Shown: one piece after another, positions 282-36,078 of the stretch
Layout of the letters: every line of letters begins with the position of its first letter
How positions within the stretch are numbered: position 1 is the stretch's first letter
NCBI GenBank assembly: GCA_019058445.1
Contig: JAHPZA010000004.1
Location: forward strand, 192,001-256,000
From: Promethearchaeota archaeon
Lineage (GTDB): Archaea; Asgardarchaeota; Lokiarchaeia; Sigyniarchaeales; SOKP01
Direction of reading: 5' to 3'
Length of the DNA: 64,000 nucleotides
Program-made: the position numbers and the translations under genes
The notes under the pieces: generated by a model
The model's input: only the letters and a program-made list of their open reading frames with translations
Told to the model about the DNA's origin: nothing
Database searches by the model: none

Positions 282-1385
282 TTATTCCTTAGGCTTTTTT
301 TTTCTCAAATATTCTGGAAAGGCATTGATGATTTGAATGTTTGATTTTAATACAATATATCGCTCATCATTGTAGGCCAGTTCTTCAATCACGTCGCGTT
401 CCTTTAGATATTCAATGGTTTCGATTAAATTGTCTAAAAATGTTTTTGAGACAAGTTGTGGTAATTTATCTCTTTGAATTAATCCTTCTCTAAGTTTTGA
501 AAGAAGATTATAGGTTTTTGGGTCGGCCATAATCTTAAATAAAATTTTGCCGTCTTCTTCCAATTCTTCCTTTGTTTTAGTCTCATATTTATTAAAATAT
601 TCTTGGACTTTTGTGAGTAAGATATCTATTAACTCGGGGATTTCATCAAAAAATTCTATTACACTGTCTGGAGGTATTCTTTCTATAATAACTTCCTTTA
701 ATAAAATAATGTACTTTTCAACTCTTCCAATCTGGTTAATAAAAACTAATTGCTCATCAAGGAGAGTGGCAATCATATTATCAAAGTTATTTTCTGGAAA
801 CCTTTCAATAAACCATTCTTTTAATTCTTCCAAAGTGAGCACTCCCTCGGATAATTCTTGGAGTGTATCATAGATATGTTGTTTACTTAATAATAGAGCA
901 ATTCTCTCTTCTTCAGTTCTTTCTCTAGTACTTTCCACAACCGCCCAGTATAGTTCCTTGACCCAAAGTTTTACCAAGGAGTAATTTTTATGTATATCTT
1001 CTTGTTCTTGACCCTCAAACTTATGTAATTCATCTTTATAAAAAGCACTGTGAATCGCACCATGTGTTTGTAAACTATTTGAAAATTCCTGGAGTAATGT
1101 GGAAACTTTTTGTTCAATTTCAGGGGTAGTTGGTTGATCAAAAATAACCGAGACCATGAGCATTTCTTTCCCTCCGCGAGCTCGAATAGACTGAATTTCG
1201 AATGGATAATTTAAGGTCGTAAAACTTTCAAACGCATGTATGAAAAAATTTTCGCTGAATGGCTGATCCAGCAGGAAACTCATTACAGAAGAAATTTCTT
1301 TAGTTAGCATATGTTTTGGATACGAATAAAAGACCGAAGGACCTATTTTTCTGTGGAAGTGATTAAGACTTATGATCGGATTCAT
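282..1385 (-). CDS. uDENN/longin-domain protein (folliculin/NPRL2-like N-terminus) with probable C-terminal winged-helix domains
   Basis: N-terminal 'SLNHFHRKIGPSVFYSYP' resembles NPRL2 'FFSEFHPTLGPKITYQVP'; 'FEIQSIRARGGKEMLMVSVI' resembles the FLCN/SMCR8 'ARG' loop; C-terminal half has two helix-wing-like segments. Confidence 0.6.
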   Translation of the reverse strand: MNPIISLNHFHRKIGPSVFYSYPKHMLTKEISSVMSFLLDQPFSENFFIHAFESFTTLNYPFEIQSIRARGGKEMLMVSVIFDQPTTPEIEQKVSTLLQEFSNSLQTHGAIHSAFYKDELHKFEGQEQEDIHKNYSLVKLWVKELYWAVVESTRERTEEERIALLLSKQHIYDTLQELSEGVLTLEELKEWFIERFPENNFDNMIATLLDEQLVFINQIGRVEKYIILLKEVIIERIPPDSVIEFFDEIPELIDILLTKVQEYFNKYETKTKEELEEDGKILFKIMADPKTYNLLSKLREGLIQRDKLPQLVSKTFLDNLIETIEYLKERDVIEELAYNDERYIVLKSNIQIINAFPEYLRKKKPKE

Positions 1386-1664: not shown

Positions 1665-1985
1665 TTATTTTTTGCCATCTTCTTGCTCTTCCTCTCTCTG
1701 CTTTCTTTTTTCCTCTCGTAACTTTTTCAGATATTCCTCTTCAGACATAATCTCTTCAATGATCGTTTTTTTCCCATTTTTTAACCATGTTTCTTTTTCT
1801 TCTCGGGTAGTCTCAACAATTTTTTTACGGATCTTGTCTAAAACGAGTTTATCTTTTATTTTTCCTTCCTCAATCAATTTCTCAATAGCAAAAACGACCC
1901 AAGACTTATCTTCGGCAATACCATCCTCGACACCTTCAAAATAAGCTTCTTCAAATTTTTTTTGTTTATCTTTGGTATTTTCCAC
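1665..1985 (-). CDS. Hypothetical charged protein
   Basis: 106-aa ORF, E/K-rich, GTG start. Confidence 0.55.
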   Translation of the reverse strand: MENTKDKQKKFEEAYFEGVEDGIAEDKSWVVFAIEKLIEEGKIKDKLVLDKIRKKIVETTREEKETWLKNGKKTIIEEIMSEEEYLKKLREEKRKQREEEQEDGKK

Positions 1986-22624: not shown

Positions 22625-23728
22625 TCAATAATGTTCAACTCCATTACTTGTTGCTATTTGATAAGCATCAGCATCTTCATTAGTTAGAATCTGCATCATT
22701 TCTTCTTCCCTCTCCGGTGCTAGGGTGAACATTGTTCCTCCAAAACCAGAACCATTAATTTTTGCTCCTAATGCTCCTGAATCGATACACGCAGCTATCA
22801 TCTTATCTATTTTAGGTGTTGAGATTTTTATGTGTTCACTTAACTCCTTTTGGTGCTTGTTTAAAAGTTGACCTAATTGATAATAGAAATTCATGATCAA
22901 ATCAGCATCAGGGGCTTCTTTTTGTTGTTTTTGCCAATCAAGGATTATATTTTTTGCTGATATGGTTACATCTCTGTTGATTATATTTCCAATTATTTTT
23001 TCTTGGTGTTCCTTTTTAAGACTAGGCAATAATGGCCTAATTTCTTCGAGATTAGTAGTAAATTCCTTAAATTCTGGCATTACTTCTTTTAAAGATTCAA
23101 AGGCGTTTTTGGATAATATTTTTCCTCTACGGAGATCTTCGACGGTATTTTTTTTTTCTTTTGAATCTCCTAAAACAAAACCGTCAAGTTTCATAGGGAT
23201 TTCAATTATTTCTGAAAGATGTTCAGTAGGCTTTAAATAAATGAGATCGCCGTAGATAGAGGTATAGAAATCCATCTTTCCTCCTGCCTCTCCAAATTCA
23301 GCCACTTCCGTTTGGTAACCCATCTCAGCCAGTTGTATTTTACTAAATTTGCCCCCTGAAATTAAATTTAGAAAACTTAGCCATGCAATAACAAAAGCAG
23401 AAGAACTAGCAGCTCCAGCATTAATAGGAATATTTCCAGTAATTTTGATATCATAACCTTTATTAAATTTTATACCTTTCCTCAAGAATTGATTATATCC
23501 ACTATGAAGATAATCTCGGTCTGAGTTATATTTCATTTCTCTGTTTTTAAGTTGAATTTCTAAATTTTCATTGATATTTGGAAGATCAATAATAAATTTT
23601 TCATTTGATATTCGTGAAGCTTCTAAGTAAATATATTTGGATATAGCCATAGCAATAACTGGATAATTTAAATAATCTTGATGCTCCCCAAATAAACAAA
23701 TCCGTCCTGGTGCCTTTAATCTTATCAT
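22625..23728 (-). CDS. galK: GHMP-family sugar kinase (galactokinase-like)
   Basis: APGRICLFGEHQDY, IPINAGAASSSA, GKMD, GAKINGSGFGG. Confidence 0.8.
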   Translation of the reverse strand: MIRLKAPGRICLFGEHQDYLNYPVIAMAISKYIYLEASRISNEKFIIDLPNINENLEIQLKNREMKYNSDRDYLHSGYNQFLRKGIKFNKGYDIKITGNIPINAGAASSSAFVIAWLSFLNLISGGKFSKIQLAEMGYQTEVAEFGEAGGKMDFYTSIYGDLIYLKPTEHLSEIIEIPMKLDGFVLGDSKEKKNTVEDLRRGKILSKNAFESLKEVMPEFKEFTTNLEEIRPLLPSLKKEHQEKIIGNIINRDVTISAKNIILDWQKQQKEAPDADLIMNFYYQLGQLLNKHQKELSEHIKISTPKIDKMIAACIDSGALGAKINGSGFGGTMFTLAPEREEEMMQILTNEDADAYQIATSNGVEHY

Positions 23729-23854: not shown

Positions 23855-24562
23855 ATGATAAGGGATTTAGTAATTATAAAGGATGGTGTTCCATTACTTG
23901 CAAAAAATCTCTCAAATTCTCAAAAGGGGCTTTTTTCTAAAGAAAACGACCTTATTATGCTGTCTGGTTTCTTTTCTGCGTTAAATTCTTTTTCTGATCA
24001 ATTTGAGGATTTGGGTTCAATCAAAGAGTTAAAACTATCTAAAAATAACTTGAAATTATCATTTCTAAATGATAGATCTGTTCAAAATTTAGTTTATTTA
24101 GCGACTTTCGATAAAGATTCTAATAGTGTTGATGTCAGAAGTTTCTTAAAGAGTGTCTCAAAGAGTTTTATAAATCGGTATGGAATAAACGAAATAAAAA
24201 AATGGGCTGGAAGAAGGGAGATGTTTGAAACGTTTGAAGAGGTAGTTGATACATTTTTAGAAGAGGAAGATTATGAGGGAAATGGAACAAGTACTTATAA
24301 TGAGCCTGAACAGCTCTTAAAATCTCATGATATTCTAAGTGAAAATGTTCCAAAGTATTATCATTATATTCCTCGATTTAAAGTATCTACAAAAATAAAT
24401 CCAGAGCATTACTTGACTGGTGAATCTTCTTATAAGGTATTTAATAAAATAGATGGTATAAAATCAATCTCTCAAATCGCAAATGAGTTACAAATGAAGG
24501 AAGAAAGAGTTTATGCCATAAGCAAGAATTTAATTAAATTCGGTTTCATATCTTTTTCTTAA
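23855..24562 (+). CDS. Longin-domain protein with a C-terminal NPRL2-like winged helix
   Basis: 'IIKDGVPLL...MLSGFFSALNSFS' longin signature; C-terminal 'IP...VFNKIDGIKSISQIANEL....VYAISKNLIKFGFI'. Confidence 0.7.
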   Translation: MIRDLVIIKDGVPLLAKNLSNSQKGLFSKENDLIMLSGFFSALNSFSDQFEDLGSIKELKLSKNNLKLSFLNDRSVQNLVYLATFDKDSNSVDVRSFLKSVSKSFINRYGINEIKKWAGRREMFETFEEVVDTFLEEEDYEGNGTSTYNEPEQLLKSHDILSENVPKYYHYIPRFKVSTKINPEHYLTGESSYKVFNKIDGIKSISQIANELQMKEERVYAISKNLIKFGFISFS

Positions 24563-35285: not shown

Positions 35286-35813
35286 TTATTCGATTAAAAC
35301 ACTTTCGAGGCATGCTTTTGCGATCTTTTTAAATGCCAACTCTACGTTATTTCCTGTTTTTGCTGATGTTTCCAGATACTCACCACCTAACCTTTTTGCT
35401 AAATCTTCTGCCTCTGCTTGATCAACTTGGCGTTTTAAATCTGATTTATTACCCAAAATTATCATGGGAATAGATTTTTTTACGGTCTTTTTAATAGAGC
35501 TTACCCATCCTGGCAACTTAAGTAATGATGGTAAGTTGTCAAGTGCAAAGACGCCAAGAGCAGCATTACTCCCCTTAAAATAAATTGTCCGTAGTTTAGC
35601 AAATTGAGCTTGACCCCCAATATCCCATAAAAGTAATCTGAGGTTTATATCATCAATTTTTACATCTTTAATAAGAAAATTGGTTCCAATGGTCTTAATT
35701 AAATTTTCCTCAAATTTATCTTGAACATAACGAATTAAAAGCGAGGTTTTACCAACGCCACCAGCACCATAAATACAAATCTTAAATTTATAACTTTCCT
35801 CTATATCAGAGAT
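35286..35813 (-). CDS. Rab-like small GTPase (175 aa; the ORF track shows only the last 76 aa)
   Basis: Manual translation: YKFKICIYGAGGVGKTS (G1), TIG (G2), WDIGGQ (G3), GNKSD (G4), ETSAK (G5); start inferred at ATC 35813. Confidence 0.9.
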   Translation of the reverse strand: MSDIEESYKFKICIYGAGGVGKTSLLIRYVQDKFEENLIKTIGTNFLIKDVKIDDINLRLLLWDIGGQAQFAKLRTIYFKGSNAALGVFALDNLPSLLKLPGWVSSIKKTVKKSIPMIILGNKSDLKRQVDQAEAEDLAKRLGGEYLETSAKTGNNVELAFKKIAKACLESVLIE

Positions 35814-36078
35814 CGTGAAAACCCTTTTTAAGTTATTTCAAATTGAATTTGATATTGATTTACTTTTTCTTTCTATATTTGATCTATTTCACTATATATT
35901 TATATGTTTATTCTAGATTATCAAAATGAATGGATATGGAAAGGGAGACACCGCAGAAAACAAGTGAAGAATTAGAGCAATTTAACAAAAACTTAACAAT
36001 TTCTTTGTTCTATATAATAAAACTGATTTATCATTTTGAAAATAGATGAAATAAGTTCCATATGACGGATTCTGTGCT

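Follow-up and report, generated by a model that had tools for sequence, protein, structure and literature searches.

What is the protein encoded near the start of this Asgard archaeal sequence, and could it govern small GTPases as its eukaryotic look-alikes do? The window, that is, the whole stretch of 64,000 nucleotides analysed here (positions 192,001 to 256,000 of contig JAHPZA010000004.1), lies on contig 4 of a Promethearchaeota genome (assembly GCA_019058445.1, hereafter G000; 4.6 Mb in 10 contigs, 92.6% complete) and has a G+C content of approximately 30%. Its complete coding sequence P0001 (282..1385, reverse strand, with an ATG start and the stop codon at 282–284) specifies a protein of 367 amino acids, which a preliminary description had taken for an archaeal GTPase-activating protein (GAP) of the GATOR1/FLCN class. 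As far as computation reaches, this reading is supported, with GAP activity as a putative property, and it is moderately probable, judging from the predicted fold and from comparison with known systems, that P0001 is a cytosolic regulator of Rag-/Arf-family GTPases belonging to the longin-GAP class, with R70 as its arginine finger.

P0001 contains two motifs, the joint presence of which is far beyond chance. The first, F10-H-R-K-I-G15-P16 (the GP motif; 1338..1358, reverse strand), covers the β1–β2 turn together with the start of β2 and corresponds to the pattern FHX3GP (X represents any amino acid) which had been recognized near the N-terminus. The second, S66-I-R-A69-R70-G71-G-K-E74 (1164..1190, reverse strand), makes up the conserved loop between β4 and β5 that bears the putative arginine finger, R70, which is encoded by a CGC codon at 1176–1178, exactly as previously described, inside the motif SXXARGXXE. 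Residues 62–82 read FEIQSIRARGGKEMLMVSVIF.

A word-indexed search returned 436 homologues of P0001 at E<=1e-3, all of them from Asgard archaea (labelled Promethearchaeota, Loki, Hod or Thor) and annotated as 'hypothetical', the close ones being labelled Promethearchaeota/Lokiarchaeota, and an exhaustive search found 261 homologues among representatives at 50% identity. F10, G15, P16, F62, S66, A69, R70 and S79 are invariant in a full-length alignment of 27 sequences. The preliminary description had made its reading depend on the conservation of R70, and this residue is near-invariant also in the N-domain as a whole: among about 120 representatives of 50%-identity clusters with many architectures, counting aligned non-gap rows only, R70 is kept in 105 of 112 rows, and the loop flanks S66 and E74 are retained in 109/115 and 107/113, respectively, while F10, G15 and P16 of the GP motif are found in 95/97, 97/99 and 96/99. 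Because both motifs are near-invariant across the representatives, the signature F-[HDN]-X3-G-P ... F-E-I-X-S-X-X-A-R-G-X-X-E-X4-S, judged by sequence, defines a large Asgard longin superfamily. Of the order's 41 genomes, 40 contain the full-length family, and most of these have one copy. G000 itself encodes eight proteins with a longin domain of this type, and the loop motif SXX(A/G)RGXXE is kept in seven of them. A metagenomic homologue (P0092, 639 amino acids), 54% identical to P0001 from end to end, has a TIR domain (PF13676) in addition. A second open reading frame of 367 amino acids in the window (22625–23728) was rejected as a paralogue of P0001, as it bears no resemblance to it and shows GHMP-kinase-like motifs by eye.

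The AlphaFold2 model of P0001, built with the 27-row alignment, is of high confidence (predicted local distance difference test, pLDDT, 89; predicted template modelling score, pTM, 0.72). On the basis of this model and of fold matches, residues 1–153 constitute a longin domain (927..1385, reverse strand), where residues 1–107 follow the order β-β-α-β-β-β-α (β1, 4–11; β2, 15–22; α1, 29–40; β3, 48–51; β4, 56–65; β5, 73–82; α2, 88–107) and two C-terminal helices (111–122 and 126–153) complete the longin fold. In the model, G15-P16 starts β2, and R70 is located in the loop between β4 and β5, outside strands and helices. P0001 thus combines the features of the longin-GAP class, namely a longin fold, a GP motif where β2 begins and a conserved β4–β5 arginine near that motif.

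Structural comparison agrees with the kinship to FLCN, NPRL2 and SMCR8 that had been proposed. The first 15 places of a Foldseek search against the PDB are occupied by NPRL2, NPRL3, FLCN, FNIP2 and yeast Npr2, with NPRL2 (9o5a_H) on top (1.2e-5, 334 alignment columns). By VIA-align, FLCN (8dhb_J) is matched with a Z of 13.7 (root-mean-square deviation 2.8, 136 amino acids, model residues 2–152), NPRL2 (9o5a_H) with a Z of 13.4 (193 amino acids over model residues 1–219, extending into the first winged helix) and NPRL3 (7t3b_C) with a Z of 12.5; the solved Lokiarchaeal Roadblock-Longin domain 8yqg gives a Z of 12.7, and the longins of SNARE, AP and TRAPP proteins score about 10 or below. Among the named clusters of the ESM Atlas, those closest in shape comprise longin-Arf fusions from archaea and Npr2 from eukaryotes, the latter with PF06218 in 100% of members and 209–215 amino acids aligned over residues 1–367; next come a Heimdall cluster, in which 23% of members carry PF11704, and SMCR8. 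A further cluster, a neighbour by Atlas features with PF06218 in 19% of members, is a lead only.

R164 of FLCN, R78 of NPRL2 and R147 of SMCR8 act as GAP arginine fingers. The preliminary description had aligned the ARG segment by eye with FLCN, which possesses an 'A-R-G'-type loop of this kind. That alignment is plausible on topology, but it has no statistically detectable counterpart in sequence, as a profile of the ARG region retrieved no FLCN, NPRL2 or SMCR8 chain from the PDB at E<=10; therefore, the equivalence of R70 to the FLCN arginine rests on fold and topology. The structure of SMCR8 with ARF1 shows the arginine-finger geometry directly (PMC8213707), and the arginine finger of DENN/longin GAPs is situated between β4 and β5 (bioRxiv 10.64898/2026.01.05.697756), as is R70. 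The GP motif, according to PMC12290439, is present in FLCN, NPRL2, SMCR8 and C9orf72 and not in FNIP2, NPRL3 and non-GAP longins.

The family is tied to GTPases by gene fusion. Nine representatives of the 50%-identity clusters carry the ARG-longin domain directly N-terminal to an Arf-type GTPase with the P-loop GL(D/S)XXGKT. G000 encodes two longin-Arf-PAS fusions of 844 and 967 amino acids (Arf, E 1.6e-33 and 1.3e-39) on its contig 3, one with several PAS domains (L038:11214–13748, forward strand) and the other with several PAS domains and a terminal HATPase_c (L040:4290–7193, reverse strand), and each of them adjoins one or two stand-alone genes for Gtr1/RagA-type GTPases (Gtr1_RagA, E 7e-25 and 3e-29). 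A third candidate fusion in this genome (359 amino acids) contains a longin and a P-loop. The GTPase-rich island on contig 3 also includes Rag-like genes whose products are extended at the N-terminus by 467 and 504 amino acids. P0187, P0191 and similar proteins (domain at 165–330) were rejected as GTPase fusions, as Pfam shows no GTPase in them.

A second tie is gene neighbourhood. The order-wide core gene of the family, represented in G000 by a paralogue of P0001 (contig 6, 1217076–1218386; 436 amino acids, 59% identical to P0001), is accompanied in 12 of 37 loci, from all four families sampled, by one orthologous Gtr1_RagA-type GTPase gene 129–1879 nucleotides away, and in three loci the two genes are head to head. 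This GTPase comprises about 315 amino acids (Pfam Gtr1_RagA, 3.6e-28), and its best PDB matches are the Asgard Rag-like 8yl2/8zla, followed by RagA/Gtr1. Since G000 contains about 13 Gtr1/RagA-type GTPases in 4.6 Mb, the chance of finding one within 2 kilobases (kb) is estimated at approximately 1–2%. Even more constant than the GTPase gene is one for a divergent HAD-type hydrolase, present nearby in 17 of the first 18 loci, so the region around the core gene is syntenic as a whole. A small winged helix-turn-helix (wHTH) gene (HTH_45) follows the core gene in 13 of the 18 loci sampled. A complex prediction for the orthologue of genome G033 (residues 1–372) with its head-to-head Rag-like GTPase, guanosine triphosphate (GTP) and Mg scored 0.24 against a mark of 0.32 and counts neither way. 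No clear orthologue of the neighbouring Rag-like GTPase was found in G000, where the best matches are 32–40% identical.

The partner suggested in the preliminary description, a GTPase at 35286–35813, did not hold up: it is of Ras/Rab type, is located 34 kb away and has no link to P0001, the evidence pointing instead to Rag-/Arf-type GTPases. This Ras/Rab-family gene (35289–35813, reverse strand; Pfam Ras, 6.2e-45) offers no ATG, GTG or TTG in frame from the stop codon upstream of it (35838–35840) to the P-loop, which is why the list of open reading frames contains only a C-terminal piece of 76 amino acids; either its translation begins at a non-canonical ATC or ATA codon, or its N-terminus is damaged. 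The protein at 23855–24562 (P0122, forward strand, 235 amino acids), previously called a longin, has no Pfam match, contains neither the GP nor the ARG motif and is not among the ARG-longin proteins found in G000.

We infer a mechanism in which the longin domain of P0001 would bind to a Rag- or Arf-family GTPase in its GTP-bound state, and R70, projecting from the β4–β5 loop beside the G15-P16 turn, would enter the nucleotide pocket and accelerate GTP hydrolysis. The working form is probably a longin-longin dimer, made up of two copies of P0001 or of P0001 and its contig-6 paralogue. The related Lokiarchaeal longin domain 8yqg was solved as a dimer. A homodimer seems likelier than an obligate heterodimer because the family is single-copy in most genomes, and pairing of P0001 with the contig-6 paralogue is an attractive idea that may apply to this genome. 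The two acidic winged helices would most likely serve protein-protein contacts.

Several observations weigh against this assignment. Many longin domains are GEFs (guanine nucleotide exchange factors) or passive platforms. E74, near-invariant and located four positions beyond R70, might form a pair with it, as would fit a structural role. As a single sequence, P0001 has no meaningful match in Pfam, NCBIfam or the PDB sequences; of 28 family members searched against Pfam, eight show a sub-threshold match to Afi1 (PF07792; best E 0.038) and one a sub-threshold match to Folliculin (PF11704; E 0.23), and NPR2 (PF06218) is not listed. A profile of 83 N-domains, compared with 177,635 PDB sequences, ranked human NPRL2 first at a non-significant E of 0.095, with the match limited to the strand pair of the GP motif (profile 4–35 to NPRL2 9–40), and a profile of the full-length family gave no relevant match among PDB sequences. 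The count of 12 in 37 loci overstates independence because the genomes are related. GTPase genes are missing from the neighbourhood of all four P0001-type loci, and the contig-6 core copy of G000 is also without a Rag-like neighbour. The only conserved neighbour of P0001, a membrane-protein gene, is so arranged in just one close relative (L013, 84% identity) and is absent in L012.

The strongest of the alternatives, which we nevertheless consider unlikely, is that P0001 is a non-catalytic GTPase platform, a GEF or an effector adaptor, where the arginine and the GP surface would serve binding or nucleotide exchange. Most longin/roadblock regulators work in this manner (DENN, Mon1-Ccz1, TRAPP, Ragulator), a longin fold, GTPase fusions and adjacency suit any GTPase-regulatory role, and both the generic longins and the Lokiarchaeal Roadblock-Longin domain align with P0001 at the levels given above. 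However, the top structural matches are GAP subunits, and the combination of a GP motif with a β4–β5 arginine is reported to be specific to the GAP type and absent from GEF longins, FNIP2 and NPRL3 (PMC12290439; bioRxiv 10.64898/2026.01.05.697756).

Still less probable is a scaffold unrelated to GTPases, in which R70 would be structural, for example salt-bridged to E74, and the likeness to FLCN and NPRL2 would reflect shared fold ancestry only. The parallel conservation of E74 and R70, the lack of detectable family membership at sequence level and the window copy standing outside any GTPase context would agree with such a protein, but this reading accounts poorly for a longin type that is repeatedly fused to Arf GTPase domains and recurrently has a Rag-like gene nearby, and the loop position of R70 coincides with that of the proven arginine fingers.

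The C-terminal half consists of two winged helices joined, in the model, by a helical linker. Winged helix 1 (residues 158–237; 675..914, reverse strand) has an acidic isoelectric point (pI) of 4.4 and matches MecI (1okr_A, Z 8.1), the cullin WHB domain and MarR, while winged helix 2 (residues 272–357; 315..572, reverse strand; pI 4.85), which possesses two extra N-terminal helices and is ArsR/SmtB-like, matches CzrA (1r1u_A, Z 7.2) and SmtB (8qkf_B, Z 7.1). Within three giant open frames of about 2655–2670 amino acids each on contig 9 of G000, stretches (430454–431077, 438808–439425 and 455484–456041, reverse strand) are 26–28% identical to the double winged-helix half of P0001 (residues 157–362). 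The preliminary description had expected C-terminal winged helices as in NPRL2/NPRL3, and this holds in part: two winged helices are present, and the full-length matches to NPRL2 pass beyond the longin domain, continuing to model residues 219–225, yet the half folded alone (pLDDT 89) retrieves only generic winged helices (MecI, cullin WHB, MarR and ArsR/SmtB) and not NPRL2 or NPRL3. P0001 shares the winged-helix fold of the ArsR/MarR wHTH factors, but by composition it lacks their basic recognition helix and wing, the would-be recognition helices (FDNMIATLLD and KTFLDNLIETIEYLKE) being nearly free of lysine and arginine. As both winged helices are acidic and without basic recognition helices, a protein-protein role is favoured over DNA binding, and from this argument of composition they are most likely protein-protein modules like the C-lobes of NPRL2/NPRL3. 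A signal-responsive transcription factor, whose longin domain would sense a ligand or partner and whose two wHTH domains would bind DNA, is accordingly the least probable of all the alternatives: the best matches of the C-terminal half are indeed wHTH regulators, one homologue (P0099) is labelled 'ArsR family regulator' (JGI) and in many loci the core orthologue is followed by a small HTH_45 gene, but these fold matches (Z<=8.1) are at the level of a common arrangement, the acidic winged helices speak against DNA binding, and this reading offers no reason why the GP and ARG surface is invariant.

P0001 itself is a recent, genus-restricted duplicate of the order-wide core gene. Only two of the nine further genomes sampled from the genus, G002 and G003, contain P0001-type copies (64–84% identical), as do a few metagenome contigs, and the core copy differs from P0001 by a lysine-rich C-terminal tail. 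All P0001-type sequences have kept the catalytic motifs; thus, the duplicate has been maintained. Downstream of P0001, 27 nucleotides after its stop codon, lies the gene for the polytopic membrane protein of 318 amino acids mentioned above (3–254 in the window; full gene L001:514–1470; reverse strand). Upstream, on the same strand and at a distance of 280 nucleotides, is a K/E-rich open reading frame of 106 amino acids (1665–1985, reverse strand) with no Pfam match, which the other P0001-type loci lack. The contig-6 paralogue is followed by a protein of 288 amino acids (L002:2864–3730, forward strand) with no Pfam match, which by eye has a longin/roadblock-like N-terminus and, in its C-terminal part, a UBC/RWD-like 'YPLKP' segment; an HTH_45 winged-helix protein of 89 amino acids (L014:9267–9536, forward strand) is encoded next.

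Among the known systems, P0001 resembles NPRL2/Npr2 of GATOR1/SEACIT (PF06218) in its N-lobe longin, GP motif, arginine in the corresponding loop, linker and C-lobe, and also in size (367 versus 380 amino acids), but differs from it in the absence of a significant PF06218 match and of an identified DEPDC5-like or NPRL3-like partner. It shares with FLCN/SMCR8 (PF11704) the GP motif and, in the case of FLCN, the highest VIA-align Z for the longin domain, and the FLCN/SMCR8 substrates, Rag and Arf GTPases, are the classes tied to the P0001 family by fusion and adjacency; in contrast to these proteins, its C-terminal part comprises two winged helices and no DENN domain. The monomeric DENN GAPs (Avl9, Afi1 and DENND6A) likewise have their arginine finger in the longin subdomain, where it follows β4 and precedes β5 within a conserved patch (bioRxiv 10.64898/2026.01.05.697756), whereas P0001 is without cDENN/dDENN domains and its family matches Afi1 only below threshold.

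A GAP reading for such Asgard longins has already been published. NPRL2-like longin proteins, including two-component fusions (PAS, histidine kinase) of the kind also seen here, have been described in Asgard archaea (Liu et al. 2020/21, bioRxiv 10.1101/2020.10.19.343400), and the GP motif together with an arginine finger has been noted in Asgard FLCN/SMCR8-type longins, regarded as possible GAPs for ArfR or Rag/Gtr (Traffic 2025, PMC12290439, section 2.6, Fig. 5D); P0001 is of the same phylum and longin type, with the same GP and arginine arrangement. In MK-D1, GTPase genes are generally not co-located with longin genes (Tran et al., PMC10933270). No GAP assay of any Asgard longin was found in the cited literature on these proteins, and the sections consulted of the published accounts (Liu et al.; PMC12290439) make no mention of a recurrent Rag-like neighbour. 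This neighbour and the paralogue pair are possibly useful additions.

It is a tentative and rather doubtful extension of the GAP assignment that the order-wide longin and double winged-helix protein, together with a Gtr1/RagA-type GTPase within 2 kb, constitutes a minimal archaeal Rag-GAP module, in which a single protein would be the forerunner of GATOR1 and FLCN-FNIP, and the duplication in this genus, which gave two ARG-bearing paralogues (P0001 and the contig-6 copy), would be a first step from a homodimeric GAP to an NPRL2/NPRL3-type heterodimer.

In eukaryotes, the longin-domain GAPs GATOR1, FLCN-FNIP and C9orf72-SMCR8 control lysosomal Rag/Arf GTPases and feed mTORC1. The P0001 family offers a candidate for an archaeal counterpart that is compact and soluble, spans the order and is mostly present in one copy, and with the neighbouring Rag-like GTPase named as a candidate substrate and a natural pair of paralogues, the published hypothesis becomes testable at the bench. 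If P0001 and its relatives are GAPs for archaeal Rag-/Arf-like GTPases, the core of the eukaryotic control of nutrient and trafficking GTPases would predate the eukaryotes.

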